Virus record (IMG/VR): IMGVR_UViG_3300036827_000193
Coordinates: 1 to 64,000 of that record
Origin: a virus
Strand: one strand, 5' to 3'
DNA: 64,000 nucleotides
In this document: one piece after another, positions 2,353-61,012 of the stretch
Numbering within the stretch: position 1 is the stretch's first letter
Layout: each line of letters begins with the position of its first letter
The notes under the pieces: generated by a model
Databases searched by the model: none
Told to the model about the DNA's origin: nothing
Seen by the model: only the letters and a program-made list of their open reading frames with translations
Program-made: the position numbers and the translations under genes

Positions 2353-2758
2353 GGCCGTTTTCCCTTTGTTTCGGTCGCGAGCAAGAATGCGTCGCAATCA
2401 TCTTATTCCGTCTTCGATCGACTGTCAGGCCCTGCAATCCTGCGTCCACTGTGAGACGAATTCGTCTGGCAACCCAACACGTTGACCTCCTGAAATGACA
2501 TGAGGCGAGTGCCAGGCGCAGCGCCGCCACGCCACTCGCTGCGGGCGAAATGTCGCACGCAGAGGTGGTGCAGCTTTGCTTCAGCCCATGAATGTAGGGC
2601 AACGCGGGTGCGACGACGCGTGACGCTGGCTCATAATTCATTCCTCCACTAACATCACCCCGGTCGATCGAGGGGGACGTGGGGAACGGCACGCCCGGTG
2701 CGTGTGCCCGGCCGCGCCATGCGTCATGGTGCGCCATCTCCGCCAGTGAGGAGCGTTC

Positions 2759-19693: not shown

Positions 19694-19742
19694 TGAAGAT
19701 GATGCCGGGGACTGTTAGCGTCCCGGCTCGATCGAGGTGCCC

Positions 19743-20087
19743 ATGGTCAAGACAGCGCTTGCGGCGTTCTTTGCCGCGCTCGTTTCAACCGGCGCCCTGG
19801 CGCAGGACCAGGCCACGGCGTATTGCCGCGGCATCGGCGCGCGGCCGAACAGCGCCGATGACCGCGAATGCCGGCTGCTGGTGGCGCAGTTCTATTCCGG
19901 CGATCCGTTCTATGCCGCGCTGGCGCGCGCGCAACTGTGGCGGCTGCAACACCGCATGATCGAGCGGCAGCGCGAGCGCGAGGCGCCACCCGACTTCTCG
20001 CAATACGGCACCACCGCCGCTCCTTCCGCGCAACAGCGCCCGGGGACGAGTTGCGTTGTGGTGGGCAACCTTATCGACTGCGATTGA
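19743..20087 (+). CDS. Secreted hypothetical protein (moron-like, opposite strand)
   Basis: GAGG RBS, signal peptide ALA-Q, two Cys pairs, ends TSCVVVGNLIDCD. Confidence 0.65.
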   Translation: MVKTALAAFFAALVSTGALAQDQATAYCRGIGARPNSADDRECRLLVAQFYSGDPFYAALARAQLWRLQHRMIERQREREAPPDFSQYGTTAAPSAQQRPGTSCVVVGNLIDCD

Positions 20088-26000: not shown

Positions 26001-29000
26001 GGCCTCGCCGCTGCGCGGTCGGTTTTCCGTGCCGCGCATGTTCGGACCCTTGCGCAGTGCGTCGATGGCCGCCTGCAGGTCGTCCCGGTTCTCTTGCAGA
26101 TATTCTCGCGCAGCCTGCGGTGTTTCAAAGCCGGCCTTCAGCCTTATGACCGTGCTGCGTACCTTAAAACCGAGGAATGCGCCCTTGGTCTCTCGATCGC
26201 GATAAATGCCGACATCGGTATATTTGGACCGCTCCCCGGCCCCCTCGGTGGGCTTTTCTGCCAGGTCGTGAGCGATGATCTTTTTCGCCAGCGCAACCGC
26301 GTCCTCTGGATTGTCGCGATAGGTATACGGGTTGGCGGGGTCGTTACTAAATGGATCGCGCGCGCTGCGACGGTCTGGTGATTCCAAAAACCAGAACGAC
26401 TTGGATGGCGAATATCGCTGTCCGTTGAGTATCGAATAGTGACCGGAGTTGACCCGGTAACGCGCGGCCCTTGGCAGATCGGCCGGCGCAATGTCCTCGA
26501 TCGCTTTCGCCGTCAGCGGCAGAGTTTGCAGTGCGTAGTTTCCACGCGCTGCCTGCTCAAGCTTGGCGACATCGATCTCGCCGTCCAGGAGCTGGCGAGC
26601 GAAGGTGCGCAGCGTCTCCACCTGTTCAGCCCACCGTTTCGCCTTCCCGGCGACCCGCGGCCGGTTCGGGATCATGTCGCGCATGATGGCGATGTGCGAA
26701 AGCACGCGCGCGTCGACACCGGCGGCGGCCAGCTTTTCGTAGTCTGGCTGCGGAAACGATTTTGACAGCGGCACCGCTGCGACATCGAACTTCTCGCGCA
26801 GCGAATCGCGAAAGCCCGCAAATGTTTCCTTGCGTGCGCCGCCGATCTTCTCGCCGAAATCCTCGACCTTGGCGACCTTCTCAGGGGCCGATGTTCTTGT
26901 TTCCGATTTGGCGCCGGGCGCGGAATCAGAAGGCCCGGCTGCCCGGGCCTGTGCTGCTTCCGTGTCTGCTGGTTTGTCCGCGGGCTCGGGCGGTTGCGAT
27001 GTCAAAACGGGTGGCAGCGCCTTGGCGGGCTTTCGCGCCAGGTCGACAAGATCGGTTTGTTTGCTCTCATCGCCGAACAGCCCTTCATCCGCCGGCTTCT
27101 GTACTGCCTTCGGCTTCAGGCTTCGGTCGGCGGCTCGCTGGGCGCGCTCGGCGTCTGAGATTTGCTCGGCACCAGGGAGGACGTGCTGCTGTCCTGCGGC
27201 TGTTCGCTCTGTGACAGGTTGAGTTCGTTCACCTGATCGCTTTCCGCCTTGGGCGCGTACTTCTCCGCGTCCCGGTCCTGCGCTCGCGCCAGCGCCAGAT
27301 GCAACCCCGCCAGCTTGTGCGCGCTGTGCCGCTTCTTCAACGGCAGGTTCGGTGCGCTCTGGCGCAGGCTTTTCGCCATGCCTCGGTGGGTGTCGCTCGT
27401 CAAGCGCATTGAACACTTCCTCTCCGGCAAGGATACCCTCGACTTTGTCCCGGTGCAATTCATCCGCGATCATGTCCTCATCGCGGGCATATTGCATGAT
27501 GACCGATTCGAGGGCGTCCAGCGGGTCCTCGCCGCGGTCGAGCATCCGCTCCATAGCGTCAAACCGCAGCGCCTCTGGCACACTATCGAGTGGGATTTTC
27601 TGTTCTTTCAGCGCGGCATCGAAGATCGGGCGCTGGGTTTCGATCTCTTGCTTGCGCCGTGCGTTGTCCTGCCGGACGCTGGTGCCTTGGGCGCGAAGTT
27701 TTTCTTCCGTGGTCTTGTAGGTCGGCCAAGGCGACCCGCGTCCCTCGTCGCGCATCCTTTGTGCGCGGGCGCGATAGGCCTCCTGATTCGCGATCATGCC
27801 GCCAAATGGCTTGCCGCCGCTTACGGCATCTTTGGCAGCCCGGGCAGGCTTGTGTTCAACAGCGGCTTCGGCGCCGCCGCCAGTCCGCCCGTCATCGGCT
27901 TCGGCAGTGCGTTCCCCGCCGGCGGTGTCACCCCCAGCGCCGGCCCCTGTCGCGGGATGACCGGTTGCGGCGGCTTGAGGCTCGCGCCCGGTGCCTTCAC
28001 CGCGAGCGGGCTCTTGGGGCCGAGCAGGTTCTTCAGGCCGTGCAGCTTCAACGCCGCCTTGATCGACAGCTTGCGCGCCCGCGGCAGTCGCCCGATCAGT
28101 TGTGGCGCCTGATGCCGCAGCGCCCAGCCCGCGTTCAGACCCGTCGCGGGCTTCCAGTAGCTCGGTTGTTGCTTCATCGCCGATGTCCTTCGCGATCTCG
28201 TCGCGGCTCATGTGACCGTCTTCGACCAGCGAGCGCACCACGGCCGTGGTGAAGGCATCATCCGGTGGCGCGCCTTCGTTGGCGTGGATCTCGGCGGCGC
28301 GAACTATATCGGCTGGCCGTACGGTGTCCGGGTCGACGCCGGCGGCGCGCAGCGTGTCCTCGATGGCCTGGTGGTGCTCGGGGCCCGCTTCGGGGGCGGC
28401 TCCAGCCCGTTCGCCGGAAATTGGAGTAGTCTTGGCGGTGGGTTCCGGCTCCGCCCTTACATTATTAGTAGGCGAGCCATGCGCGGTTCCCGCTTCGGTC
28501 CCGGCCGCTTGCATGGCGGGTGCGGTTTCCGGCGGGGTTTCCGGCGGGTTTTCCGCCGCCATCGCCTCGGAGGCCGCAGCCTTGGTGTTGCCGGTCTTGA
28601 GCCAGTCCTTGAACTCGCCGACCGGCATCGCCCGCATGCCGCCGATGTGCTGGGGCTTCTTCGAGCTGGTGCCGAGATAGGCCTGGATGGCTTCGGAGGG
28701 GCCATCGAACCCGATCATCGCCTTGTGCTGGCGGAACGCGCCGGTCGCCTCGTCCTTCTCGTCGAGCACATAGACGGTCGGACGCTGCGGGTTTGGTCCC
28801 ATGAAGACGTCGACGTGCATGCCGTCGGCGCCTTCGGTGCCTTTTACATAGCCATAAGGTACCGAGTGGGTGGTCTGCCACGCCTCACCGGTTTCCGGAT
28901 TGGTACCGCGGCGCACGCCGCCGGCCGGCGCCTCGATCGTGATGTCGAGACCGTTCCAGCGCATGTGGCCGCGTTGGACATTGTTGGCTTCACCTTGCTC

Positions 29001-30926
29001 CGGTGAGTGATCCTGGTCGGCGACGGATGCGGCGCGCGCGACGTCATCGGCGGTCTTGACCTCGACCGGCGCCTCGCGCGTGCCTTCCTGCGGCGCTTCG
29101 GCGCCGGCATGCACGCCGTTCTTCAACGCCTCATCGACCGCGTCGGCCTTCTCATCCGGCTTCATGCCGGCGACGTCGTCCTTGGAGTAGCCGTAGCGGC
29201 GCAGCACCTCGTCATCGTCGGCGCGCTGTGAGCCGTAGCCGAACTTGGTGTTGACGTAATCCTTGAGGTCGTCGTCGTTCCACGAGCGGATCGTGTCGCG
29301 ATCGAATTCCTTGTAGTAGGCCGCGGCCTCCTCGAGCTTGAAGCGCGCGCGCGCGCCCATCTTGGTCTCGAACGGTTGCGGTTTTTCGCCCGGCTGCTGT
29401 TGCTGCGCGCCGGATCCCGGCGCTGATCCCGAACCGCCGCCGGTTTGCTGCTGTTGGTCACCGCCCGCCTGATGGTCCCACTCCCCATTCATCGGGTTGT
29501 AGTACCAGCGCCCCCCGGCGGCATCGTCGCGATACCACGTGCCATTGAAGCCGCGGCCGCTGGTGCCCCATTGGTAATCGGGATCGTAGGGATCATCGCG
29601 GCGTGGCGACCCGGTCGGGCGCGCGCCCGCGCCGGCAGCACCGGCGCCGCCGGGCGATTCACCCGGGCGAGGACCGCCGCCCGAACCCGCTGCCGCGCCA
29701 GGCGCTTCGCTTCCCGGCAGTGCGCCCGACACCGCGGCTGCCGGCTGATCCGCTGTGGCGGCCGGCTCGGCGGCATTGCGATTGCCGAATGTCGAAAGCC
29801 CGTGCGTGCCGCCACCGACCGCGAGACCGGTGATGTAGCTCGCCAGCATGCGCTTGAAGTCGGGCGTGTAGGCCGCGTTCTTGTCGTAGTAGGCCGCGGC
29901 GATCTTCTGGTTGAGGTAGTCCTGCGCCTCGCCGATGCCGGTAAAGACGACACCGTCACGCAGCGCGTGTTCGAGGGTTGCCGCTGCCCAGCCGGCGAGG
30001 CCAGGTGCAACCTGCTTGACCGGCGCGAGCACGGAGCCGAGCGGGATCATGCCGAGGCCGCCGCCGACAAGCCCGGAGAGCCCGGCCGCCTTCGCGGCAT
30101 CGTCGTCGCTCGCGCCCTTTTGCTTGGCGGCGTCGAAAGTTTCCCCCGCAGACGACAGCCCCATGCCGAGTCCGCCCATGGCGAGACCGGTGAGCGGGCC
30201 GGCTGCGAGACCGCCAGCGACGTACGGCGCTATGCCGCCGATGCCACCCGCCACCTTGCTGGTGAGCGTTTCCTTCTCGGCTGGCGACAGCGGCGCGGCT
30301 GCCTCGCCGAATTGCTTGACCGATCGTCCGGCCCGGTAGAGCGCGTTGTCCTCGATCGGCGTGGCGCCGACGGTTGCGGTGCCGGTGATGTCGCCGCTGT
30401 TGGGGTCGACGGTGTCCTGAATATCGGACGGAGCGGTGTTGCCCGATGCTCCGGTGACGGCACGGCCAAGCCGGTCAAGGCCGACGGCTGCGCCCTGCAT
30501 GATATCGCCGGTCTGCCCGGTGATGCCCTGCACCGCCGATTTTGCCGCGACGCCAGGCAACGACGACCACGGCACATCCTCGGGCTTTGCAGCTTTCGCC
30601 GACTGGCCGCCGACCGTCGCGGTGCCGGTGATCGGCGGCTCGTCGCTTGGTGCTTCGCCGTACTGCGAGAAGTCGATGGCCGGCGCCTTGTCGACTTCAT
30701 CCTGCGTCTTGCCGAACGCGCCGAAATCGGGCTGCGCCTTCTGCGCATCCTGGTGCTGCTGCAGTTGCTGCTGCTGGCGCTTATCGAGTGTCTTGCGGAT
30801 GAGGCGGTTGAGCACCGCCTGCGGGTCGACGGCATTGTTCTGGACAAGCTCGGGCGCGCGCTCGGTGATGAGATCGTTGACGATGCCTTGCGGGTCGACC
30901 GCCCCAAGCGCGTCGGCGAGGCTCAT
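20088..30926 (-). CDS. Giant polyvalent internal-virion/ejection protein (3612 aa)
   Basis: N-terminal Gly/Ala hydrophobic helices; InPase-like domain (YGYVKGT.GADG.HVDVF); DFGEKIGGARK; LPD1-type zincin (FRGVQFGN, SLAHEWLHALD); IEEVQSDWHQ domain; JAB-like E...HNHP..GTLSGPD; last gene of the ejection cluster. Confidence 0.88.
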   Translation of the reverse strand: MSLADALGAVDPQGIVNDLITERAPELVQNNAVDPQAVLNRLIRKTLDKRQQQQLQQHQDAQKAQPDFGAFGKTQDEVDKAPAIDFSQYGEAPSDEPPITGTATVGGQSAKAAKPEDVPWSSLPGVAAKSAVQGITGQTGDIMQGAAVGLDRLGRAVTGASGNTAPSDIQDTVDPNSGDITGTATVGATPIEDNALYRAGRSVKQFGEAAAPLSPAEKETLTSKVAGGIGGIAPYVAGGLAAGPLTGLAMGGLGMGLSSAGETFDAAKQKGASDDDAAKAAGLSGLVGGGLGMIPLGSVLAPVKQVAPGLAGWAAATLEHALRDGVVFTGIGEAQDYLNQKIAAAYYDKNAAYTPDFKRMLASYITGLAVGGGTHGLSTFGNRNAAEPAATADQPAAAVSGALPGSEAPGAAAGSGGGPRPGESPGGAGAAGAGARPTGSPRRDDPYDPDYQWGTSGRGFNGTWYRDDAAGGRWYYNPMNGEWDHQAGGDQQQQTGGGSGSAPGSGAQQQQPGEKPQPFETKMGARARFKLEEAAAYYKEFDRDTIRSWNDDDLKDYVNTKFGYGSQRADDDEVLRRYGYSKDDVAGMKPDEKADAVDEALKNGVHAGAEAPQEGTREAPVEVKTADDVARAASVADQDHSPEQGEANNVQRGHMRWNGLDITIEAPAGGVRRGTNPETGEAWQTTHSVPYGYVKGTEGADGMHVDVFMGPNPQRPTVYVLDEKDEATGAFRQHKAMIGFDGPSEAIQAYLGTSSKKPQHIGGMRAMPVGEFKDWLKTGNTKAAASEAMAAENPPETPPETAPAMQAAGTEAGTAHGSPTNNVRAEPEPTAKTTPISGERAGAAPEAGPEHHQAIEDTLRAAGVDPDTVRPADIVRAAEIHANEGAPPDDAFTTAVVRSLVEDGHMSRDEIAKDIGDEATTELLEARDGSERGLGAAASGATTDRATAAGAQAVDQGGVEAARPEEPARPQEPARGEGTGREPQAAATGHPATGAGAGGDTAGGERTAEADDGRTGGGAEAAVEHKPARAAKDAVSGGKPFGGMIANQEAYRARAQRMRDEGRGSPWPTYKTTEEKLRAQGTSVRQDNARRKQEIETQRPIFDAALKEQKIPLDSVPEALRFDAMERMLDRGEDPLDALESVIMQYARDEDMIADELHRDKVEGILAGEEVFNALDERHPPRHGEKPAPERTEPAVEEAAQRAQAGGVASGAGASAGPGRGEVRAQGGKRSGERTQPVTERTAAGQQHVLPGAEQISDAERAQRAADRSLKPKAVQKPADEGLFGDESKQTDLVDLARKPAKALPPVLTSQPPEPADKPADTEAAQARAAGPSDSAPGAKSETRTSAPEKVAKVEDFGEKIGGARKETFAGFRDSLREKFDVAAVPLSKSFPQPDYEKLAAAGVDARVLSHIAIMRDMIPNRPRVAGKAKRWAEQVETLRTFARQLLDGEIDVAKLEQAARGNYALQTLPLTAKAIEDIAPADLPRAARYRVNSGHYSILNGQRYSPSKSFWFLESPDRRSARDPFSNDPANPYTYRDNPEDAVALAKKIIAHDLAEKPTEGAGERSKYTDVGIYRDRETKGAFLGFKVRSTVIRLKAGFETPQAAREYLQENRDDLQAAIDALRKGPNMRGTENRPRSGEALREGDVTPEMFSGAFGFRGVQFGNYVEGQRRQADLNRAFDALMDLADVVGVPPQALSLNGELGLAFGARGHGGRDAASAHYEPGQVVINLTKGGGPGSLAHEWLHALDNYFARQDQASGYISERRRDGGPVRHEVYQAWKNVEASLQKGGFADRAAKFDKVRAKPYWNTTIEKAARSFERYIVDRLADKGAANDYLANIDTAGGAYPTADEMRDQGIRAAYDHLFETIEARPAGHGFALAESEDAFGHAPAFYSAVERAVAAVKQDKAAPNHWLGTIRNAPGVKPEEIEWLGLEHWLREHKGAVTKAEVHDYVRAHQVEVREVEKSDAQPPSDIEDWTQGEPVENDEGGTTTQLTLPGRSTGTGIDVYHDKNGELTGYAAFVRGTMLGDHESFEGAVADLAREIGGDIGGTQYRQYTLPGGENYRELLLTLPEKLPGEEASRNAQVDAWHDFEMEMRRKYGTTGTDDTLAAMSPAERERYAQFDREYRPPSANQDFRSPHFDEPNVLAHIRFNDRTIDGKKTLFIEEVQSDWHQAGKKKGYKQPPQKLFTDSDFKFVRTDGDHGKHWFALPDGSERPGWGDTVDVARAEAVDNYQRSAKIHGDYEQGTRVPDAPFKTTWPELSLKRIIRYAAEHGYDKIAWTPGDVQADRYDLSKQIDDLHYIKGADGHYTIDARLKGRSDNTRIAEGVPEKDLPDHVGKDVAARIAAGEGKPSGFYGTDKGRRTLSGLDLKVGGEGMRGFYDDILPKTANKLVKKYGGKVGQGKLPTVPADFQNDLSRGLVLEQDKSKYPGHTVHTLDIAPALRQAATGQGFALFQPGETKPAKVTAHDLGPIAIPQHMLAGDWAQRHVLRQGIATGLEHLVAVDQNGKVVAHTRGGPGNTGQDLKLFAIASDPRNAIVIHHNHPRDGTLSGPDIGFLGLPGLHAVWAHGHGGHVARAELTPSARAALRRFDPVTAAKYLYAAHEAVQNKLYDIINTALLSGRIDRDTANALLPHAVAVALHRAGIIDYRSNSTFGDDIEKLGLGAYIELAAHAARGTVHGPDELPDDRSAGSLRHAGDLGASFARTAEVAAGHVAAPGHDRVGGADDRAQAARAAHGVGLGDAELAGTELAGTGLAEEGRHYTLGAMGDPIRTIKVFKDFWTSAFQPELVSDRALEADPLFARYKARQAQEKDAVVRQSESQWNYWNKRGDAERIRFLDDVESNNTPADATQADMARRYRRILDANWAEEQRYGSRAAFVDDYFPHIWEQPDEWRAFSETRSAQVGPTWFQKKRTYDYISEGLAAGLKLRFTNPVDIVVHRLLSGVDMRQRMELLYQLKDMGLAWEGKQGGEQLVRRGWRAINAPDRQQWVIVPDVQKLWQNGVEAKGLWQAEHVGGSMFRGWMALKNAWVPIKLALSAFHPLHVLHIDQANSLARAWDDLAKGHDLPAALKAAAEGVGTIPTLGMIHYRKGAKARAAWAKRPSQQTPQDKAVVALMTDGGFVPQLSEQLKIAARRQLAVAWRKVLRGEAGASDWRKAVSAAMRRPIEVLQAPLFEKWIPALKAAAYLDQAASLLKRRPGLLADDTNRRIALRAIAKSIDNRYGEMSYGTLFWNRTTKDAAIGSFLSLGWNLGFVREFGGATLEAGTRTAGLLPPFKPSAGRAVTRDATNKIPFVLAYVGTAALIAGIMTNLFTGKQPEGIDYVFPRAGGENPDGSPRRYTTMFYLREVPMLLKHVQERGGNWLSGAGEMLWNKLMFEPFHELLTNRDYYGYNIWDENAPIYQQVWQGVKHFFGDQTNPMSVSGAKHAAELSGKPFPSAAEAIRHPEQYLDALKAKGVGMSVLGFGPAPAYVEKSPIQNRISYLYREHVAPTSRPEEQAQGTEEKMAVRSAILIAKRDHDSKALQDAYQRGKALGLKPGYMQNVGVVPTDIYLFSRLPNEDQKAILLQASKDERNRYWPKAHQTVKNEVNRQVHLPAIPAGALPAGAM
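22700..22879 (-). CDS. Nested +1-frame small gene (59 aa) inside the giant gene
   Basis: GAGAGGGA RBS, ATG 22879; GC3 bias shifts to this frame. Confidence 0.6.
   Translation of the reverse strand: MAQTNFQMIDPPGAFDTLATWEHHLHELRKLPQDTLLRQDMIASAEQMIERKRREPRTA
27116..27409 (-). CDS. Nested +1-frame small basic gene inside the giant gene
   Basis: GGAGAGGA RBS, ATG 27409, MRLTSDTHRGMAKSLR; host frame is a low-complexity linker here. Confidence 0.5.
   Translation of the reverse strand: MRLTSDTHRGMAKSLRQSAPNLPLKKRHSAHKLAGLHLALARAQDRDAEKYAPKAESDQVNELNLSQSEQPQDSSTSSLVPSKSQTPSAPSEPPTEA
27821..28177 (-). CDS. Nested +1-frame Lys/Pro-rich gene inside the giant gene
   Basis: AAGGA RBS, ATG 28177; host frame has AT-rich third positions here. 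Confidence 0.4.
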   Translation of the reverse strand: MKQQPSYWKPATGLNAGWALRHQAPQLIGRLPRARKLSIKAALKLHGLKNLLGPKSPLAVKAPGASLKPPQPVIPRQGPALGVTPPAGNALPKPMTGGLAAAPKPLLNTSLPGLPKMP

Positions 30927-32188
30927 TAGGTTCCGGTCATCGCGAGATAGTCGTCATTGTTGGATGCGGTCGGCGCCGTCGTGGTGGCCGGCGCCGCACT
31001 CTGGCCGCCCGGTGGTTTGGTGCGCTGGCGCGCCACGCCATTCTGGTCCTTGAACCACGCGCCCATCGGCACCTGCGTATTGAAGTCGTCGAGCGTCATG
31101 CCCTTCGTTTCGAAGGGATTGTCGGCCGCGGTGCCCATGTCCTTGATCTTGTCGGCCTGCTTGGGATCAACGCCGGCGGATTTGTAGAGCCGGCCGCGGT
31201 AGGCCTCGACGTTCTTCGACAGCCGGTCGAGATCCTGCTGCTGCTGCTCGGGCGTCGCGCCATTGAGCGCCCAGCGCTTCTGCAGCACGATCTGCTGGCC
31301 CTTCTCATATTTCTGGGCTTCGTTCTCGACCGAGATCACCTTGCCGTAGGGTGTGTTCTGCCAGGCGCCCGAGCCGCCCTTGCCGGTCTGGCCAAGCTCC
31401 AGGCTTTTTGCGCGTGCTGCGAGATAGTTGCCTTGCGCGGCGCGGTAGGCCGACTTGTCGTCGGCGTCCTGCGCCGACAGCATGTCCTTGAATGCGCCCG
31501 ACGACTGCGTGAACAGGTCGTTCTTGGCCTGGCGCAACTGCGCCTGCTGCTTGCCCTCCTGATCGAGACCGCCTTCGAGGCCGCCGCCAAAGCCAGCGGC
31601 GAATGCCGTGCCGGCCGAGGCGCCCGGCGCCGTCTTGCCGACCGCGCTCATGCCCTTGCCGAGCGCGGCGAGCGAGTTCTGCCATGGATTGGTGTTGGTG
31701 AGCCCGAGTGCGCCGGCGAGGTTTCCGGTCGAGGTCGGCGGCGGCGCGCCCATCGCGGATGACGGCGGCGGCGCAACCGGCATCGTGTTCACGCCAAGCG
31801 TCGGCCTGGCGTTGGGGGGCAGCGCTGCACCACCGGACGTGATGGCGCCTGCTGGCGTCGGGCCTGACGCAAGGTCTGGCCGCGTTATGGCGCTGTCGGG
31901 AGTGGGGCCGGAGGCGAGGTCGGGCGTTGCCGACAATGGCCGCGGCTGTGGCAGGGGAATGTCAGGCAGCGCATTCGGCGGTGCCGGTGGCGGCCCAGGT
32001 GGCGGCCCAGATGGCGCCCCAGGCGGCGGCCCAGGTGGCGGAGCTGCTGCCGCGCCCGGCGCCGGCGCAACTGGCGGCGACATCGACGGTGGCGTCAGCG
32101 GTGTCGACGACAGCGCGCCGCTTGCACCGGGAATACCGAGCAGCGCGCGCATCGCGTCTGCATCGTCAAAAAGGTCTAAAAACCCCAA
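30926..32188 (-). CDS. Internal virion/ejection protein
   Basis: Pro-rich N-terminus, Gly/Ala hydrophobic stretch, Gln-rich coil; position in the podophage ejection cluster. Confidence 0.7.
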   Translation of the reverse strand: MGFLDLFDDADAMRALLGIPGASGALSSTPLTPPSMSPPVAPAPGAAAAPPPGPPPGAPSGPPPGPPPAPPNALPDIPLPQPRPLSATPDLASGPTPDSAITRPDLASGPTPAGAITSGGAALPPNARPTLGVNTMPVAPPPSSAMGAPPPTSTGNLAGALGLTNTNPWQNSLAALGKGMSAVGKTAPGASAGTAFAAGFGGGLEGGLDQEGKQQAQLRQAKNDLFTQSSGAFKDMLSAQDADDKSAYRAAQGNYLAARAKSLELGQTGKGGSGAWQNTPYGKVISVENEAQKYEKGQQIVLQKRWALNGATPEQQQQDLDRLSKNVEAYRGRLYKSAGVDPKQADKIKDMGTAADNPFETKGMTLDDFNTQVPMGAWFKDQNGVARQRTKPPGGQSAAPATTTAPTASNNDDYLAMTGT

Positions 32189-39039: not shown

Positions 39040-39588
39040 ATGACCAAGGCTGACACAGCCTACATTAGATTCATTGACGCAGGGCGGCGGTTTAACCGCC
39101 TTACCGCCATCGAATTTGTCGGCTACGAAGCGACGCCGCGCAGAAAGCCGCTCTGGCGTTTTCGGTGTGACTGCGGGAACGAGTGCATCAGCCGCACCGA
39201 GAGCGTCAGAAGCGGGAATACAAAAAGCTGCGGATGTCAAAAGGTCGACAGCACTCGGAGGGTTGGCCATGCCAATTTTGTGCACGGCCAGAGCGACACG
39301 AGGATTTACCGAATCTGGCACGCCATGCTGCATCGCTGCAGCAACCCGAAGAATGAAAAATTTGAATACTATGGCGGTCGCGGAATTTCGGTTTGCCGCG
39401 AATGGCACTCAATCCACGATTTCAGAGATTGGGCGCTGGCCAATGGTTACGCCAAGAACCTCACGATCGACCGGTATCCCGACAAAGACGGAAACTACGA
39501 GCCCCGCAATTGCCGGTGGGTGACGATAGAAGAGCAGCAGACGAACCGCCGCCCGCGCCGCTGGTTGAAACGACCCCCCGTCGCGTGA
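39040..39588 (+). CDS. Free-standing HNH-like homing endonuclease
   Basis: WRFRCDCG, TKSCGC, YGGRGISVC.EW, TIDRYPDKDGNYEPRNCRW; paralog of 15856..16482. Confidence 0.85.
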   Translation: MTKADTAYIRFIDAGRRFNRLTAIEFVGYEATPRRKPLWRFRCDCGNECISRTESVRSGNTKSCGCQKVDSTRRVGHANFVHGQSDTRIYRIWHAMLHRCSNPKNEKFEYYGGRGISVCREWHSIHDFRDWALANGYAKNLTIDRYPDKDGNYEPRNCRWVTIEEQQTNRRPRRWLKRPPVA

Positions 39589-39939: not shown

Positions 39940-40170
39940 TTATTGTTCGAAGCTTTGGTCAGGCCCCTGATAGGCGTACCCATCGGTGCCGGCGACCAGC
40001 GGGGGATTGCCCTGCGCTTGCGGGTTGGCCTTCGACAGCAAACTGAAGCCATCGCGCCCGGCATCGCCGGATTCGATGTCGTTCTCGCCGTAGTTCGTGA
40101 GCGGACGCGGATCGACCAGTTTGACCGGATCGTTCCGTCGTGCCGTGCCAAAGAAAAAGCCACCGCGCAT
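39940..40170 (-). CDS. Small phage hypothetical protein
   Basis: GGGAG RBS; fills the gap in the operon. Confidence 0.5.
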   Translation of the reverse strand: MRGGFFFGTARRNDPVKLVDPRPLTNYGENDIESGDAGRDGFSLLSKANPQAQGNPPLVAGTDGYAYQGPDQSFEQ

Positions 40171-40242
40171 GACGCAGTTCTCCCTTGCTGGAAAATGAAA
40201 ACGGAGAGGCGCTCAGGCCTCTCCGCCGTATGCGAGCGGGGC

Positions 40243-41001
40243 TTAGACCGTTTCCGGCCCGACCCACTGGACCTTGACGCGCGGGATGCCGCCGCCAGCG
40301 CCGGAGCCGGCGCCATTCGCCGCCAGCGTCACCACGACGACGAGCCACATGATGCCGCCGTTGGTGTAGGTGCCGGTGAAGGTCTTGGCGACCTCGATGT
40401 ACTGGAAGTTGGTATCGATCGCCGTGATGGCCATCAGGTTGGCGTTGGCGTTGGTGCCGCCGCCGACGATGCCCTGGGCCGAGACGAGTTGGCCCGTGAC
40501 AAGGTCCTTGAACGGCTGCTGGCCAGCCGCAAAGATGCGGCAGTGGCTGGAGTCGACACCCTGGACCACGGATGTGATCACCCAGCCGCTCGCCGGGATG
40601 CGGCCCGCCGGCACAACCGTGCCATAGGAGCCGCCGGCGATGCCCTTCGACGTCAGCGGTCCGCCGTCGAGGACGACGTGACCGGCGAAGTCGCTGAGCG
40701 CGCGCGGGGGATTACCCGTGATCGCTTCGGCGCTGGCGCGGTAGGGACCAACGCCATAGCCCGTTGCGGTCGCGGTGCCGAGCCGGTAGCGCCCGTAGGT
40801 GAAGTCACCCGACGAGATGCCAACCATGAGCTCGGGCACCGTGGTGGTGCCGACCATCGAGGTCGTGACATCGACCATCAGGTCGCGCACGAACCCGACT
40901 TTGCCGCGTGGGCCGACGATGTAGTGGACCACGCTTGCCGCAGCCCAGCCGGTCGATTCGGCCCACTGCTGCAGTTCGACGTCGGAGTTTTCGTATGCCA
41001 T
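40243..41001 (-). CDS. Putative capsid-associated (decoration) protein
   Basis: Directly after the capsid gene, GGAGG RBS, Gly/Thr-rich beta composition. Confidence 0.65.
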   Translation of the reverse strand: MAYENSDVELQQWAESTGWAAASVVHYIVGPRGKVGFVRDLMVDVTTSMVGTTTVPELMVGISSGDFTYGRYRLGTATATGYGVGPYRASAEAITGNPPRALSDFAGHVVLDGGPLTSKGIAGGSYGTVVPAGRIPASGWVITSVVQGVDSSHCRIFAAGQQPFKDLVTGQLVSAQGIVGGGTNANANLMAITAIDTNFQYIEVAKTFTGTYTNGGIMWLVVVVTLAANGAGSGAGGGIPRVKVQWVGPETV

Positions 41002-41016
41002 GTTCTGTTTCCTCCG

Positions 41017-43710
41017 TTACGCCGCGCTGTCCCACATCACGACCCGCGAGTTGAGCGAGTCGGTGTGGACCAAACCAAAACCGCCGAGGTAATTGATTGT
41101 GTTCACCCGTCGTCGCTAACGACGGGCCGAGACGACCTTTTTGTAGGTCAACTCTGCTGGCTCTTTCGAACCAGTCCAGACCATATCTTCAGTGACGCAA
41201 GTTGCTTTTTTGCGTTACTGCTGGGGGCTTCGGTGCGCTTGCACCTACGAGCTTTCGCTCTGGTCGTTGAAGCTTCCTCTGCGTGAGAGGCTCGCCTGCT
41301 GATTATCCAATCTCAGAACTTTTCAGGCCGTCACGCCTGCGGTCGCCCGCTACGTTGTGGCGTTCTGAGCTTTAGGAACTTCCAGCAATTCTCCCAGTTT
41401 TTACGCCTAGCATTATTCTCTACCAGGCGATGCCCCGGCTGCGACCGTAGTCGCCCGGGATCTTCGCGCGGACTTCCTCGGGTACGCACACGGCTTCAGT
41501 GACCGTGTCACCGCCGCAGAAGAACGCCCAGGAAGACAGGCCATTCGTCCACGGTTGCGCAACGCCGCTCCACGGATCGTACGACGTGGCATTCGCCGCG
41601 CCGCCCTTGGGAACGAACGTCTGCTCGATGAAGCGGCAGGACTCGTACCTGCCGATTTCGCCGTTGAAGATGTGCGCGAGACCGGTCTCGGTGTACTGGT
41701 GGATGGTCTCGAGCGAATTCTTGAAGTTGCGATACGTGGTCGGATGCGACACCGCCACGTAGTCATCCGCCGTGAACGGCGGAATGTTTCGCTCCTTCAT
41801 GGTGTCGACGATCGCCTTGACGTGCCCGGTACCGAGCGCGACGTTGTTCGTCACGGTTGCGGTGCCGTTGGTGTCGAGGTTGATGGCGGTCGTCGAAGTG
41901 CTGGAAGACGGCTCGGCGCGCAGCAGAGTGTTCTTGAACTGCAAGAACGACTCGATGTCGAAGTATTTGCGCGCGTCGTCCTTCAGCGTTTTGTCGATGA
42001 TCGCGGCGACCTGATGCTTCGCCAGCGCGACCAGCTTGCCGGTGTAGGGAACGCTATTCCCAGCTTCAAAGCAGAATTGTTCTTTGCCGCGGCTCTTTAT
42101 CCGCAGCCTCAACCGCTCGCGCGATTGCTCAGACTATCTCTTGCAGATTACTGTGATCTGCCCGGGCGCTCGTGGTCGGATTATTCTTTCGTCACCGACT
42201 AGTCGTTACGCCTTCCGCGCCCCTGGGGCTCTCGCCTTACATGCGCGACTTGGCTCGGGATTGTCTCTGAGAGAGGTTCCCCGAATTCACCCGGTGTTTC
42301 ACCTTACGCGGCGAGCGCGAAGGTGCGGCCTGTGTTGACCGTAAGCTGGTGTTGCAGCATGACGAACCCGGTCTCCGGGATCGGGGCGCTTTCGTCCAGC
42401 CGGCGGCCTTGCGTGCCGAGGTTGGAATAAACGTCCCAGTTGAACTTGTCGCCGCGGTTGAGGCCTTTCTTGGTGCCATCCTCGGCGTCGCAGAGCTGCC
42501 GCATCTTGGTCAGCGGCTGCACCTGCTGGCGGAGCACGTCCGACAATTCGTCGGAGTACATGAATCCGCCCTCAGTGGGGACTGCCTTTTGTTCGCACGA
42601 TCCCGTTTGTGGATCGTTCCTGCATCTTTCAATGCAGAGCAGACTATATCTTGAAATCTTCTGCCGGTATCCCACATACATCCCTAGCGGGGAAACACAT
42701 GCGCATCACCAAATCACAACTCGTCGCCCTCTACGCAAAGAGGACTGACGATCAAATCGGCAAGCTGTTCGGCGTAACCGGCCATTCAGTTGGCGATTGG
42801 CGACGGCATTATGGCATCCAGCGCAAACCAAGAGAGACTTACAACAAGTATACCCTTGATCGCGATTTTTTCGCGAAGATTGACACCGAAGAGAAGGCGT
42901 ACGCGCTCGGTCTTATAGCGTCCGATGGATGGGTGGCCCGATCTGGAAAGCAAGTGAGCCTTGCTCTTCAGGTTCGAGACCGGCACATCCTTTATGATCT
43001 TCGACGCGCCCTGAAGTCGGATGCTCGTGTCTTCGACAAGGCGAGAGGCGGCTTTGCCGGCTCTGGCCCGCGGAAACAGATTACCTTCGACAGCAAGAAG
43101 CTGGTCGCCGATCTGGCGCGCTGGGGTGTCATCCCCGGAAAATCAGTCACCCTCCGCTACCCCCGTATTCCGAAACATCTTGAGTGCCATTTTGCGCGAG
43201 GACTTTTTGACGGGGATGGGCACATTCGCGCCCACCCGAAAAAGCTCTTTTATTTTCTTGGCACTTCCGACCTGATCGACGGACTACGAAAGTCGATCAT
43301 CCGACATACGGGCGCGGCGCTCGCCAAGTACGAGGCCGTGGGCTGTTGGCGGATTTCTGGATACGGTGGCAGCGTCGCGGTGCTGCGGTGGATGTATGAA
43401 GATGCGACGATCTGCCTTCGCAGGAAGCATCGCGTCTTCTTGAGGTACTGGAAGTGATGTCCTGGGCGCTCGTGGGACCGATTATCGTCGGGGTCTCACA
43501 GTCCTAGTCGTTGAACCTTCCGAGCTACAGTTTCCCCTGCTCGGCTTGGCTGCTGATCGGCCAATCCCTGATCTTTTCGCGCATTCACGCTCGCCCTCTC
43601 GGGCCACGTTGTAGCGATCAAGGCTCTAAGGCTGTTCCAGCAATTCACCCAGTGCGCACTCTGAACTCGCATTCAGAGGGGGGCTAAGTTACCCACAATT
43701 GTCCTGCCAT
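41017..43710 (-). CDS. Major capsid protein (N4-gp56-like family), about 330 aa, four exons: complement(join(41017..41093,41422..42071,42338..42584,43692..43710))
   Basis: Joined frame reads MAGQLW/AVPTEGGFMYSDELSD...QHQLTV/FEAGNSVPYTGKL...GEIGRYE..RF...IPGDYGRSRGIAW/YYLGGFGLVH...VVMWDSAA*; AAAGGA RBS; follows the scaffold gene. Confidence 0.88.
41094..41421 (-). mobile_element. Group I intron 3 (328 nt, no ORF; two hairpins between P7 and P3, IA2-like); apparent terminal A
   Basis: P1 CGCCUGGU/GCUAGGCG with U.G; P AAUUGCUGGAA, Q AAUCAGCAG, R UUCAACGACCAG, S GAAGAUAUGGUCU (compensatory GACCA/UGGUC). Confidence 0.9.
42072..42337 (-). mobile_element. Group I intron 2 (266 nt, no ORF, canonical splice sites)
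   Basis: P1 CGGU|C/GGCCG with U.G; P AAUUCGGGGAA, Q AAUCCCGAGC, R GUAACGACUAG, S AAGAGAUAGUCU; ends ...AAUUCUG; removal restores GT|C TTT GAA. Confidence 0.92.
42585..43691 (-). mobile_element. Group I intron 1 (about 1107 nt) with an antisense LAGLIDADG ORF in the P8 loop
   Basis: P2 CUCUGAA/UUCAGAG, P3 CUGGGU/GCCCAG, P AAUUGCUGGAA, Q GAUCAGCAGC, R GUUCAACGACUAG, S AAGAUAUAGUCU, P9 UGCAU..GAAA..AUGCA; boundaries uncertain by 1 nt. Confidence 0.88.
42699..43457 (+). CDS. Double-motif LAGLIDADG homing endonuclease with N-terminal HTH
   Basis: AYALGLIASDG and HFARGLFDGDG; N-terminal DQIGKLFGVTGHSVGDWRRHYGI; GGGGA RBS before ATG 42699. Confidence 0.9.
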   Translation: MRITKSQLVALYAKRTDDQIGKLFGVTGHSVGDWRRHYGIQRKPRETYNKYTLDRDFFAKIDTEEKAYALGLIASDGWVARSGKQVSLALQVRDRHILYDLRRALKSDARVFDKARGGFAGSGPRKQITFDSKKLVADLARWGVIPGKSVTLRYPRIPKHLECHFARGLFDGDGHIRAHPKKLFYFLGTSDLIDGLRKSIIRHTGAALAKYEAVGCWRISGYGGSVAVLRWMYEDATICLRRKHRVFLRYWK

Positions 43711-43744
43711 CTGACAGGGTCCTTTCTCATGAATGCCCGTGCCG

Positions 43745-45073
43745 TCACAGTCCGATGGCCTGGCCGCGCAACTTCGCTCGTCGCGCCTTTTCGGCGTTGA
43801 CGATTGAGGAGCGATCCCGCGGTTGCGGGGTCGCTTGCGGGTCGGGCCGCGGAGCGGCGGTGCGGGCGGGTTGTTGCGGTATTGCGGCCCGGCGTTGGGT
43901 GCGGTCGACGGTGACGTCGATGCGCGGTGCCGCACGAGGCGGCGTCGCCGGGTCGTCTGGGGTTTGCGTCTTGACCCCTTTCCATTCCAGGAAATTGTCC
44001 CGCGCCTGCTCAAGCAGAGCCTGCGGCGTGAGGACGTTGAAGCCATTCGCCCGGTAGAACCGGTGGGCGTTGGCGATGTCGCCTGGTGTTGGCGGCAAGC
44101 CGTCTGGCCTGATCCTGGCGGGGTCGAGCCCGAGCGCCGTGATGTCAGCGAGCTGCAATTCGAACATCTTGGATTCGATTGCGGCGCGAGCCATCGGGTC
44201 TTTGGCGAGATCGGGGTGGCTGTCCTGGAAGTCCTTCAGCGTCTTCGCAGCCCGAGCGCCTTCGTCTCTGAGGCGTTGCTGCAAGAGTTCCTGCTGGACC
44301 GTGTGCGTGGTCGCTGTGTCGATGGTGTTTCGCAACAGCTCGCGCGCTTCCGAGGGATCGCCAAACTGGATCGTTTCAATCAGCTTGCCGTACGGGTCCT
44401 CCTGGTTTGGAGGCTCCGTCGTCGCAGCCGGTTGATCCGATCCTTGCGTCCTGGTGTCCGGCGTGGTGTTCGCCGGAAGGTCGGGACGCGCGACCTTGTT
44501 ACGGGCCTGTTCGAGGATGCCGTCGAACTCCTTGAGCTTCGACTTGGCCTCGTCGAGGATGTTTTCGGCCGCGAGAGATTTCTGCGCATGCGCGACAATC
44601 TCTTCGAGCGGCAATTCCTGTTCCTTGCCGTGAACCTTGACCTTGATCCGCGGCGGCGCTGCGGGCGCGGGCTCGGGCGCGGGATCGACGTCATCGGCCG
44701 GCGGCTGCAGGTCGTCCTGCGGCGCCTGCGGGGCGGGCGGCGGTGCGGCGATCTCGGGCGGCAGGCCGCTGCGCGCAAAGTCGCTGACGTCGTCGCGATC
44801 GGCATCGGCGTCGGCGGTGCGCTCGGTGCGAAACCGCGCCGAGATGGCGTCGCGCTTGCGGTCGAAGGCGCTGACCGCGGGCGGCGTCTCGCGCGGTGCG
44901 GGCTCGGCTGCCGGTTGCGGTGCGAGTGGCGGGACGGCGGGCCCGGGATCCTGGGGCGCGCCATCGGCGACGACGTCGAGCGCGGCGGCGTTGGTCTCGC
45001 CCGGCTGAATTCCCGCCTGCTCGCGTGAAGCCGCTTCCACACGCTGCGCCTCATGGCTCGGTGTCGTGACCAT
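43745..45073 (-). CDS. Capsid scaffolding protein
   Basis: Acidic Pro-rich N-terminus, KVKVHGKEQELPLEE, helical core, basic C-terminus; directly upstream of the capsid gene. Confidence 0.8.
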   Translation of the reverse strand: MVTTPSHEAQRVEAASREQAGIQPGETNAAALDVVADGAPQDPGPAVPPLAPQPAAEPAPRETPPAVSAFDRKRDAISARFRTERTADADADRDDVSDFARSGLPPEIAAPPPAPQAPQDDLQPPADDVDPAPEPAPAAPPRIKVKVHGKEQELPLEEIVAHAQKSLAAENILDEAKSKLKEFDGILEQARNKVARPDLPANTTPDTRTQGSDQPAATTEPPNQEDPYGKLIETIQFGDPSEARELLRNTIDTATTHTVQQELLQQRLRDEGARAAKTLKDFQDSHPDLAKDPMARAAIESKMFELQLADITALGLDPARIRPDGLPPTPGDIANAHRFYRANGFNVLTPQALLEQARDNFLEWKGVKTQTPDDPATPPRAAPRIDVTVDRTQRRAAIPQQPARTAAPRPDPQATPQPRDRSSIVNAEKARRAKLRGQAIGL

Positions 45074-45091
45074 TCGTATGCTTTCCCCTTG

Positions 45092-45122
45092 AAATGCAGA
45101 AAGGCCGCCCGGTGGGGCGGCC
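45092..45122 (-). terminator. Intrinsic terminator/attenuator-like hairpin
   Basis: GGCCGCCC-CACC-GGGCGGCC followed by TTTCTGCATTT on the - strand. Confidence 0.6.
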
Positions 45123-45160
45123 TGCTGCCGAAAATTGAAGCTCTCGTTGTGTTGGCGCGA

Positions 45161-45559
45161 TCAGTCCTGCGGCGCGCCGTCGATCAGGCCGAGCTCGATG
45201 GCCTGGCGCTCGCCGTCGGGCTGTTGCGCCAACAGGTCGAGCATCTCGTCGCGCTCGGCGTCGCGCATTTCGCGGTCATAGGCGACGCCTTCGGCGATGA
45301 TCGCGCGCAGCCAGGCGACCCATTCGTCGTAGCGCTTGACCTCGTTCTGCATGGTCGTGATCTTGATGCGGTCCTTGGGGTCGTGGACGTTGAGATAGAC
45401 GAGCGCCGCGAGCGATTCGGCGGCCGCCTCGCGCAGCCGGCGCAGGATCTCGATGGTCGGGCCGCCGCCGCTGCGCTCGCTGAGCTCGACTTCAAGGTCG
45501 GCGCTCGCCTTGATGATGCGCTGGCGCGCCAGCAGGACGGTCGGATCGGCTGACGACAT
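45161..45559 (-). CDS. Phage head-module hypothetical protein
   Basis: 132-aa helical ORF upstream of the scaffold gene. Confidence 0.7.
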   Translation of the reverse strand: MSSADPTVLLARQRIIKASADLEVELSERSGGGPTIEILRRLREAAAESLAALVYLNVHDPKDRIKITTMQNEVKRYDEWVAWLRAIIAEGVAYDREMRDAERDEMLDLLAQQPDGERQAIELGLIDGAPQD

Positions 45560-45562
45560 TCT

Positions 45563-46849
45563 TCACCCTTCGTCCTTGAACAATCCAAGCGCGCGCAGCA
45601 CGGCGATGGCGTCGCTTTCGTCCTGTGCCTGCTGCAGGCGCTTCGCTGTCGCCATGGCGTCATGCGGGACGAATTCGTTGAACGTCGGCAATCCACTCGG
45701 CGACATCACCTGCATCGGCGCCGGCTGGCCGAAGATCGAGAGCGGCGGCAGCGGTGGCGGCCCGGCCGGGGCGACGACCGCGGGCTTCTCCGGCTCCTCG
45801 ACCTTGCCGCCGCGGTCCCATATCGGCTTGAACGGCTTGCGCGGCTTTACGTCGTAGGGCGGCTCGGGGATGTAGGAGGGGAAGTCCTTGCGCCGGCCCG
45901 AGCCTGGCGGTTTGAACTCGGGGACTTCGCCTACGAGATCCCAGACCGAGAAGATCTGGCTCGCGACCGGGAACGGTTTGGCGAACTGGACCGGCGGCTC
46001 GGGGTAGAACTGGAATTCAATGCCGGTCGCGACCGGCCGCGGCGCCTTGATCTCATATTGCTGTTGCGAGACCGGAAACGGCTTGGCGAACTGGATGTCG
46101 AACTGGTAGCCCCAGAAACCCTGCGGGAACGCAGTGCGGATCGAACCGCGCGGCGTGAAGTTTGAATACTGCTGTGACGCGATCGGGAACGGCCTGGCGA
46201 AAGCGTGCTCAAGTTGCTCGCCGAACCAGCCCTCGACCTCGGCCGCTTCCGGGACATGCTCATCGGCGTGCGCGAGGAACTGCTGCGCGGTGACCGACAG
46301 CGGCACCGCAAAGGCATAGCTCCACTGGAAGCCGCTCCACCCATCCGGGAAACTGCTCCTGATCCTTCCGGCCGGCTGGAACGCCGTGTACTGCTGCGAT
46401 GCGACCGGGAACGGCTTGGCGAAGACGTCCGGCGGCTGCGGATAGAAGCCCTCGCTGTCCTCGGCGACCCGGACATGCTCGGGGATGTGAGCGGCGTATT
46501 GCTGCGCCGCGACCGGGAACGGCTTGGCGAAGCGGCGCTCGAGCTGCTCGCCTTCCCAGCCGTGCGGCGTGATCGCGGTCGGGACCGGCTCGGGGCCGTG
46601 CGCAACATATTGCTGCAGGTGCGCCGGAAACGGGCGGGCAAAGACCTCCGGATTGAGCGGCTGCTGCTTCCAGGGCGAGGTGTTGGTTGCGCCAGACGTT
46701 GTCGCCAGAACCAGCGTCGAGAAGGCGGTGAGCGCGGCAACCGAGATCCGCCGCACGATCGGCGGATCGGAAAACCCGGATATTGCCGTCGCGGACCGCG
46801 ATGGCAATTGCCCGAGCGCAAGCTGACCGAGTGCGCCGAAACCAAGCAT
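45563..46849 (-). CDS. Repeat protein with 7 FA(K/R)PFP.A.QQY units
   Basis: MLGFGALGQLALGQLP start; about 30-aa periodic repeats. Confidence 0.75.
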   Translation of the reverse strand: MLGFGALGQLALGQLPSRSATAISGFSDPPIVRRISVAALTAFSTLVLATTSGATNTSPWKQQPLNPEVFARPFPAHLQQYVAHGPEPVPTAITPHGWEGEQLERRFAKPFPVAAQQYAAHIPEHVRVAEDSEGFYPQPPDVFAKPFPVASQQYTAFQPAGRIRSSFPDGWSGFQWSYAFAVPLSVTAQQFLAHADEHVPEAAEVEGWFGEQLEHAFARPFPIASQQYSNFTPRGSIRTAFPQGFWGYQFDIQFAKPFPVSQQQYEIKAPRPVATGIEFQFYPEPPVQFAKPFPVASQIFSVWDLVGEVPEFKPPGSGRRKDFPSYIPEPPYDVKPRKPFKPIWDRGGKVEEPEKPAVVAPAGPPPLPPLSIFGQPAPMQVMSPSGLPTFNEFVPHDAMATAKRLQQAQDESDAIAVLRALGLFKDEG

Positions 46850-59990: not shown

Positions 59991-60736
59991 TTCCGTGTTG
60001 CCCCGTTGATCGCCTGCAGGAAGGCCTGCGGTGTGTTCGGTATGATGTTGAGGAGTTTCATCTGCTCGTCCCAATCGGACTGAAACGGCATATGCGCGGC
60101 GCTGTACATTACGCCCAGCGGTGATCGAAAATTCCCGACAATGCCAAGCCCGGTCGGTGGGCAGGCGACGGTGAAGGCGACGAGGTCGGTCCGCTCGACG
60201 ATGGCTGCCATCAGGCGCCAGACATCGCCGGTATGGAACGAGGACTGCGGCAACGGCGTCGCGGTGCGCTCATCCATCGGGATGACGTCATGGATGGCGA
60301 TGATCGAGGAAGGCTTCGCCAGCCGTTCGAGGCTCTCAAAGTCGCGCAGCGCATGGTCGAAGCTGTGATCGCCGTCGATGAAGGCAAGGTCGAAGCCCGC
60401 GACAAGCTGGCTGTTATGCGGGTTGGCGAAGAAGGCGTCGCTGGTCGAGACGGAAAAGGCCGTGTTCGGCTTGCCCTTTTCAACGAGCGCCTGGCTCGGC
60501 GCCGGATCGATCGCGATGCACCGGGTATTGGCGTGCGCAAGCTCAAGGCTTTTGCCCTCGCGCACGCCGATCTCGACGTAAAGCTTCGGCCACAGCGTCA
60601 TGTGCAGCGCGCGCAGCACCTGGAGATAGTTCGGCCCGGGCAGCTTGAGATAGGCCAGCGCCTCGTAGCCGAGGTGATCGTGGATCGGCGCCGTCGCCAG
60701 CGTGTGGGCGATGCGCTCGCAGAGTTCACGCTGCAT
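59987..60736 (-). CDS. Class I SAM methyltransferase (Methyltransf_24-like)
   Basis: YVEIGVREGKS, IDP, DLAFIDGDH, IAIHD, GDVWR. Confidence 0.88.
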   Translation of the reverse strand: MQRELCERIAHTLATAPIHDHLGYEALAYLKLPGPNYLQVLRALHMTLWPKLYVEIGVREGKSLELAHANTRCIAIDPAPSQALVEKGKPNTAFSVSTSDAFFANPHNSQLVAGFDLAFIDGDHSFDHALRDFESLERLAKPSSIIAIHDVIPMDERTATPLPQSSFHTGDVWRLMAAIVERTDLVAFTVACPPTGLGIVGNFRSPLGVMYSAAHMPFQSDWDEQMKLLNIIPNTPQAFLQAINGATRK

Positions 60737-61012
60737 TCAATCCCACCGGTTTGTGAACGTCACTGGAGTGCGCAGCGGAATGAATTGCTTGACCATTTCC
60801 GCGTGCTTGAGGCCGTGCCAGACGTCGCCTAGTGCCGGGCCTCCGGTTCCTTCCAGGAACATGATGTTGTAATGCGCCGCCACCCCGAGACAGGCATCGC
60901 GCGCCACGATCACAAGCGGCCCGCTGACGATGTTGTACTGCCGCGCGAGGAACGGTGTGTCCGGCAGCGGCGAGGCGACATCGGTAGGCTCGTTGTGGAT
61001 ATCGATCTTCAT
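60737..61012 (-). CDS. Hypothetical protein
   Basis: Coupled 91-aa ORF. Confidence 0.5.
   Translation of the reverse strand: MKIDIHNEPTDVASPLPDTPFLARQYNIVSGPLVIVARDACLGVAAHYNIMFLEGTGGPALGDVWHGLKHAEMVKQFIPLRTPVTFTNRWD

Follow-up and report, generated by a model that had tools for sequence, protein, structure and literature searches.

A homing endonuclease gene was found on the strand opposite to that of its own group I intron, within the major capsid gene of a soil phage. The sequence analysed (the window) comprises the first 64 kb of the 81,387-bp IMG/VR virus record IMGVR_UViG_3300036827_000193. Three group I introns interrupt its major capsid gene, and the endonuclease gene takes up nearly all of the P8 loop of the first, antisense to both the intron and the capsid gene. 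The element is probably a mobile group I intron carrying a backwards homing endonuclease gene, the two travelling as one lineage in head-protein genes.

The capsid gene lies on the minus strand, matches the major head protein family PHROG 1357 and is preceded by a scaffold-like gene. Its four exons and three introns were delimited with the group I model RF00028 and by tblastn with an intronless capsid protein (Table 1). The matches to RF00028, all on the minus strand, were at 42620-43700 (50.7 bits), 41157-41493 (68.1 bits) and, by local search, 42110-42323 (42.4 bits, E 1e-8). The exons add up to 993 nucleotides (nt), which equals 330 codons and a stop; the product is colinear with that of intronless relatives and has the same length of 330 amino acids (aa), and removal of the introns leaves the reading frame intact. 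Viral contigs searched with exon 3 yielded 410 relatives, and 80 were retained (contigs and loci are designated L and a number). About 70 of these 80 have an uninterrupted 330-aa gene. Introns were present in 7 loci, in varying combinations, at no fewer than six sites (aa 6/7, 35, 54, ~77, 89/90 and 305/306). Ribozyme cores related to that of window intron 1 were found in L007 intron 1, L010 intron 2, L059 and window intron 3, and window intron 2 is a relative, lacking an open reading frame (ORF), of introns that bear HNH genes. The capsid gene of this phage group (relatives L004-L083) is an intron hotspot, with five different endonuclease types.

Intron 1 starts 19 nt into the capsid gene. 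Its alignment to RF00028 (42620..43700, minus strand) spans the full model, positions 1-253, and with E 6.2e-10 and a score above the gathering score of 50 it includes the P3-P9 catalytic core of a group I intron. An insert of ~800 nt in this alignment falls between P3' and J8/7, that is, in P8. The two P8 strands, read from the sequence with the help of the homologous intron in L007, are ~780 nt apart, and L007 pairs GACUUC with GAAGUC at the corresponding place. The TGA stop of the endonuclease gene (43455-43457) is inside the 5' strand of P8 and its start lies 33 nt from the 3' strand. The position antisense in the P8 loop, with the stop overlapping the P8 stem, had been proposed in an initial annotation of this DNA and is borne out by the covariance-model alignment and the location of the TGA codon.

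The ORF encodes a protein of 252 aa that matched PF14528 (LAGLIDADG_3) with 31 bits against a cut-off of 22.5 (E 3.2e-7) and the PHROG 4645 'endonuclease' family with E 1.3e-45. The start is set at 42699 by the family N-terminus MR[IVP][TS]K. Both LAGLIDADG motifs were placed by aligning 24 relatives; the catalytic D76 is invariant and D173 is kept in at least 90% of them. An AlphaFold2 model built on these relatives (mean predicted local distance difference test score, pLDDT, of 92.5) consists of N-terminal helices followed by two alpha-beta-beta-alpha-beta-beta-alpha halves, a pseudo-symmetric fold, with a stretch of lower confidence at about residues 41-50 (block mean pLDDT 63). The N-terminal helices form a predicted helix-turn-helix (HTH) domain, and the homologue in L010 matched HTH_23 at 5e-10. 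The best Foldseek match was I-Tsp061I (2dch, E 1.7e-9, probability 1.00), followed by intein endonucleases, the bI3 maturase, I-AniI and I-SceI. I-Tsp061I, I-AniI and I-SceI share the monomeric two-lobed fold and the two catalytic motifs with the predicted protein, at 9-21% identity; to our knowledge none of the three has an N-terminal HTH and all are encoded on the intron sense strand. The Shine-Dalgarno-like GGGGA upstream of the start has counterparts of different sequence at similar spacing in homologues (GGAGG in L086, AGGAG in L087). The profiles, the fold model and GGGGA agree with the earlier description of an intact ORF with an HTH, two LAGLIDADG motifs and a ribosome-binding site. 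Together they confirm, at the level of sequence and model, that 42699..43457 encodes a monomeric two-motif LAGLIDADG homing endonuclease with an N-terminal HTH.

A homologous intron is present at the same capsid site in a related contig (L007/L084/L086), where the same ORF is again antisense. The introns of the window and L007 are 72-73% identical over ~1.1-1.4 kb. The endonuclease and its L007/L086 copy share 72% of their residues, with rates of nonsynonymous (dN) and synonymous (dS) substitution of 0.21 and 1.95, respectively, and a dN/dS of 0.11. This ratio indicates that the endonuclease gene is under purifying selection at the protein level and, taken together with the profile E-values, excludes a chance ORF. 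No stop-free frame of the capsid strand crosses the endonuclease gene (4, 8 and 6 stops; TCA is used three times and CTA once). A more distant copy (52% identity) with a duplicated HTH is antisense in an intron at the LTV/F site (a slash marks the insertion point) in L010 and L088. In L088 two group I hits, 2001-2230 and 2256-3445 (minus strand), are ~25 nt apart and the second carries the antisense endonuclease; so close a pair may enclose a very short exon or be arranged as twins.

The orientation of the nuclease was surveyed in 160 loci from viral and metagenome contigs, collected with the alignment of the 24 relatives. The strand of the intron was read from the invariant core segment AAGATATAGTC next to the ORF, with one mismatch allowed; its hits were enriched at that position far beyond the 0.175 per locus obtained after shuffling. 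By this marker 47 loci were sense, 14 antisense and 99 undecided, so that the sense orientation, presented as normal in the initial annotation, is the majority within this family. On 20 loci the Rfam gathering threshold missed almost all ORF-bearing introns and E-value mode was used instead. Introns on the minus strand around or abutting the ORF were then found in L088, L090, L134, L135, L136 and L160, and the antisense arrangement in L007 and L010 was also backed by the covariance model. All nine antisense cases with covariance-model or capsid exon support are in major-head-protein genes: L090, L135, L136 and L160 are flanked by head-protein exons (PHROGs 1357 and 1328), L134 shares a flanking ORF with L136, and L088 holds the capsid family of the window itself. 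Antisense calls for L126, L176 and L170 were not counted, as they rested on the motif alone, without covariance-model support; L176 is flanked by an rIIA-like gene. The ORFs that flank sense cases match DNA polymerase, primase/helicase, topoisomerase II, NrdD and helicases, and a head protein was absent from the 25 families most commonly flanking them. In one locus, L171, group II hits (RF02004, RF00029) are closely followed by a sense member of the nuclease family (1488-2151, plus strand), possibly a LAGLIDADG gene that belongs with a group II intron.

In a maximum-likelihood tree the nine supported antisense proteins made up one side of a branch (Shimodaira-Hasegawa-like approximate likelihood ratio test, 93), and the ribozyme 5' cores of this clade are 68-86% identical to the window core. 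Because the proteins lie on one side of a branch and the cores are homologous, the sequences indicate that one lineage of intron plus backwards gene has spread among capsid genes, and not that the gene was repeatedly inverted within the nuclease family. Independent antisense cases with unrelated nucleases do exist in capsid introns, namely the HNH genes of L007 and L053 and gp14 of phage LittleE (see below). The two HNH genes (PF01844; L007:3059-3775 and L053:3176-3763, both minus strand) lie in the capsid intron at the LTV/F site; the core of these introns is homologous to that of window intron 2, and Rfam gave no call for them at E <= 0.01. By order of intron, the antisense ORFs of the capsid family are those of L007 intron 1 and L010 intron 2 (the LAGLIDADG family of the window) and of L007 intron 2 and L053 intron 1 (HNH), and the sense ORFs are those of L010 intron 1, L052, L069 and L070 (other LAGLIDADG types) and of L053 intron 2 and L059 (HNH_3).

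The closest known case is LittleE, with which the antisense layout in a capsid intron is already published once. Splicing of its capsid intron was proven by reverse-transcription PCR and N-terminal protein sequencing, and a LAGLIDADG-like frame was noted on the bottom strand (Pope et al. 2013, PMC3706429). In the GenBank entry (JF937101) gene 14 is on the minus strand within the major capsid gene 13. Like the window, LittleE has a group I-type intron in the major capsid gene (RF00028, 30.7 bits, E 2.3e-5), with a LAGLIDADG ORF (LAGLIDADG_3, E 8e-5) that runs antisense to it. In contrast to the window protein, gp14 has 177 aa, is without an HTH and gave a BLASTP E of 0.059, which is not significant; its ORF follows the ribozyme core, whereas the window ORF is in P8. 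LittleE has one intron, an actinobacterial host and canonical U/G splice sites, and the window has three introns. No match was obtained by blastn of the halves of the window intron-1 core against the LittleE locus, or of the LittleE intron against the compared capsid introns. The sequences thus point to the same layout in a different lineage. The view that this layout is exceptional was overstated for capsid introns, given the LittleE precedent and the nine supported cases. What is added here, as far as the sequences go, is that the antisense clade is confined, in the supported cases, to head-protein genes, and its sense relatives are in replication-type genes.

LAGLIDADG enzymes had further been described as uncommon in phage introns; relatives occur in introns of staphylococcal Kayvirus and in hundreds of viral contigs, which does not support that statement. 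The endonuclease in the split DNA-repair gene of Kayvirus belongs to the same family (PHROG 4645; 28-33% identity over >90% of the length) and also resides in a group I intron, but its ORF is on the strand of the host gene. The sense-strand PHROG 4645 relatives have host genes of replication or nucleotide metabolism and fall outside the antisense clade. Endonuclease genes antisense within a group I intron are also known from nuclear ribosomal DNA, as in I-DirII of Didymium iridis and the L2066 introns, where the gene has its own promoter (PMC3073962, PMC9548176). Those systems differ from the window in being eukaryotic, with an RNA polymerase II promoter, a spliceosomal intron, poly(A), a His-Cys box enzyme and an rRNA host gene.

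In the mechanism that we favour, the endonuclease would be made from its own plus-strand transcript and, in a relative infecting the same cell, would bind and cut the uninterrupted junction ...GGACAATTGTGGG^CAGTCCCC... Such a target exists in nature, as L246 has an intronless allele in which the sequence is nearly unchanged. When the break is repaired from the intron-bearing genome, the intron would be copied into the cut one. Within the capsid pre-mRNA, the endonuclease gene in its entirety would be nothing but a P8 loop insert, which is spliced out. The backwards orientation would keep nuclease expression independent of the very strong late transcription and translation of the capsid gene, and ribosomes off the ribozyme. 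We infer that homing may thereby be uncoupled from late transcription, and that antisense RNA may have an effect on the capsid pre-mRNA. A more specific proposal is that the orientation is an adaptation to the late and extremely active capsid gene. The nuclease gene would be transcribed early, from a promoter with the complement of the invariant J8/7-P7 segment (GACTATATCTT) as its -10 element, and would be shut off by head-on late transcription. This would explain why supported backwards members are in head-protein genes and sense members in replication genes, and why unrelated nucleases in capsid introns (LittleE gp14; HNH in L007 and L053) have the like orientation; we put it forward as a tentative idea with a rather small chance of being correct.

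Since nearly all genes of the surrounding block are on the minus strand, the ORF is not expressible from the capsid transcript and a plus-strand promoter of its own is logically needed. To this extent the initial annotation was right in requiring one; no sigma-70-type site was identified to go with it. This and a number of other results weigh against the favoured mechanism. A scan for sigma-70 promoters over 42200-43800 on both strands gave 0 sites. The sole upstream -10-like element, CTATAT/TATCTT, is the complement of the conserved J8/7-P7 and lacks a -35 partner; the sequencing runs with window sequence are of soil DNA, and no RNA run is listed among them. On paper the 5' splice site of intron 1 does not fully conform to the group I rule, with G at -1. 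Exon identity between the window and L007 is flat (0.81 for exon 2, 0.82 for exon 3) and not raised beside intron 1, so that this comparison gives no sign of co-conversion or recent homing. Co-conversion of introns 2 and 3 along with intron 1, raised in the initial annotation, is a conjecture, and intron combinations vary between relatives. Being conserved for ribozyme reasons and without a -35 partner, the -10-like element was not counted as evidence, and the window lends no support to a promoter within the ribozyme sequence. The element resembles what we take to be the rhizobial -10 consensus. In L134 and L135 no more than 7-9 nt separate it from the start codon, a distance that would be compatible with leaderless transcripts. 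A looser search (TTGNNN-N16-19-TANNNT) in the 180 nt upstream of this gene and of the second plus-strand endonuclease gene (39040-39588) found nothing, and the motif common to both upstream regions, a 9/10 match (CGGTTTGTGG / CCGTTTGTGG), is at chance level (~0.9 expected by our estimate). The weak terminator-like hairpin downstream of the endonuclease gene is likewise not above chance (1 found, 1.7 expected from shuffles).

The negative scan of 42200-43800 and the missing co-conversion signature would also be expected of a decaying relic, with an intron that has become fixed and lost its mobility and a nuclease that is inactive or no longer made; between the window and L007 the intron has moreover diverged about as much as the exons, which is what long vertical descent would produce. 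We consider a relic unlikely, as over 250 codons, with synonymous sites almost saturated, dN/dS is 0.11, the frame is intact with both catalytic aspartates present, the fold is predicted with confidence, Shine-Dalgarno sequences are kept in three relatives despite differing sequence, and targets exist, most capsid relatives being intronless. The geometry allows yet another function, since any transcript of the plus strand would match 759 nt of the pre-mRNA in full complementarity: the transcript could mainly be a regulatory antisense RNA that modulates splicing or capsid output, the protein being incidental. The second endonuclease gene is also antisense to late genes. Selection acts on the protein sequence, however, splicing removes the complementary part, and no RNA run is listed with the sequence; we consider a mainly regulatory role highly improbable.

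Group I introns follow a near-universal rule: the exon ends in U, which forms the U.G pair of P1, and the intron ends in G. Intron 2 conforms on both counts. For intron 1, the natural intronless allele in L246 reads ...ATTATGGG CAGTCCCC... and the window exons read ...ATTGTGGG / CAGTCCCC...; restoring the intronless TGGGCAGTCCCC by homology puts G, not U, before the 5' splice site (TGGG/U; 43685-43695 and 42580-42590, minus strand). The U able to pair with the guide G is the first base of the intron, and the terminal G is present (42585). The homologous intron of L007 likewise follows a G, and only that placement ends the L007 intron in G. Intron 3 has a good P1 (CCUGGU with GCUAGG), a P10 of 4 bp (AUUA with UAAU) and the canonical G-C of the G-binding site in P7. 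By homology (GIAW/YYLGG; window 41085-41100, minus strand) it nevertheless ends in A (41094); in L059 an intron at the same capsid site ends in G. Rule-conforming 3' splice sites for introns 1 and 3 were rejected, as they would add 4 codons to an exon sum that is already exactly 330 aa; for intron 3 the alternatives would either add 4 codons or remove YYLG. Alternative 3' sites were also rejected on the A-rich tails that follow the last hairpin (12, 11 and 13 nt in three homologous introns), which have a non-coding pattern.

The non-canonical 5' splice site of intron 1, P8 strands 780 nt apart and a fold that also resembles the bI3 maturase and the bifunctional I-AniI could point to a protein that is mainly a maturase, an RNA chaperone for folding a ribozyme with a 780-nt P8 insert, with DNA cleavage lost or secondary. 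Pure maturases commonly lose the catalytic aspartates, which are conserved across this clade; the extra domain is an HTH of the DNA-binding type, and this capsid gene also contains introns 2 and 3, which have cores of a related type but neither an ORF nor a dedicated protein. A predominant maturase function is therefore very unlikely, and we retain homing as the probable role of the protein.

Phage intron homing genes are textbook sense-strand passengers, with expression tied to, or insulated from, the host-gene transcript. The window belongs to a coherent lineage of ribozyme plus backwards nuclease in head genes of at least two PHROG families (1357 and 1328), and with the basic layout published for LittleE it adds breadth and not a new principle. 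If the orientation is adaptive, it would give a general insight into the persistence of selfish elements in a virus's most strongly expressed gene, and would bear on the way in which related soil phages may attack each other's capsid genes in co-infection. With G before the 5' site of intron 1 and A at the end of intron 3, the gene is a natural test case for the group I splice-site rules. Of modest practical use are this test case and a new meganuclease scaffold that is probably specific and carries an extra HTH.

Table 1. Features of the capsid gene, its introns and the antisense endonuclease gene in the window.
Feature	Position	Strand	Remarks
Capsid exon 1	43691..43709	-	19 nt, ATG GCA GGA CAA TTG TGG G; tblastn
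Group I intron 1	42585..43690	-	1106 nt; bounds by restoring the intronless allele TGGG/CAGTCCCC
Capsid exon 2	42338..42584	-	tblastn
Group I intron 2	42072..42337	-	no ORF; RF00028 42.4 bits, E 1e-8
Capsid exon 3	41422..42071	-	tblastn; PHROG 1357
Group I intron 3	41094..41421	-	no ORF; RF00028 68.1 bits; last base A by homology
Capsid exon 4	41017..41093	-	includes stop codon; tblastn
P8 5' strand	43450..43461	-	GACAUCACUUCC; our reading of the sequence and L007; holds complement of endonuclease stop
P8 3' strand	42653..42665	-	GGCAGAAGAUUUC; our reading of the sequence and L007
J8/7-P7' core	42642..42652	-	AAGAUAUAGUC; complement GACTATATCTT 46 nt upstream of endonuclease ATG
Shine-Dalgarno-like GGGGA	42689..42693	+	-10 to -6, 5 nt before ATG
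Homing endonuclease gene	42699..43457	+	ATG to TGA, 252 aa; antisense to intron 1 and capsid gene
Three-helix N-terminal (HTH) domain	42711..42812	+	residues 5-38; model helices 5-12, 17-23, 28-38
LAGLIDADG motif 1	42897..42929	+	AYALGLIASDG, catalytic D76; alignment of 24 relatives
LAGLIDADG motif 2	43188..43220	+	HFARGLFDGDG, catalytic D173; alignment of 24 relatives
Weak terminator-like hairpin	43701..43720	+	over capsid start codon; ~245 nt downstream of endonuclease stop

The 81,387-bp phage record is rated complete by CheckV. Fragments identical to the window are present in three soil metagenome runs of DNA; the contigs from these runs were identical and without joints, and neither intronless nor ORF-less variants were seen among them. 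A megablast search of 40000-46000 against cultured phages gave no match. The nearest capsid relatives within bacterial genome bins are from Xanthobacteraceae, Hyphomicrobium and Bradyrhizobium, and the host is therefore probably a soil member of the Hyphomicrobiales, Xanthobacteraceae-like. From ~16.5 to 64 kb nearly all likely genes are on the minus strand, the clear exceptions being the endonuclease ORFs 39040-39588 and 42699-43457; the gene-calling heuristic also gave two weaker plus-strand frames (19719-20087 and 60125-60832). The ORF at 39040-39588 is a free-standing HNH endonuclease gene (PHROG 374, E 7.8e-61), antisense to its neighbours, which occupies a gap of ~700 nt between two minus-strand late genes; its surroundings gave no intron hit. 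The frame 45563-46849 (minus strand), upstream of the scaffold-like gene, encodes a protein of 428 aa with about seven F[AG][KR]PFP..(Q)QY repeats. One open frame of 3621 codons extends over 20088-30953 (minus strand); its G+C content at third codon positions (0.76) is of the coding type, and it may encode a giant structural or tail protein.

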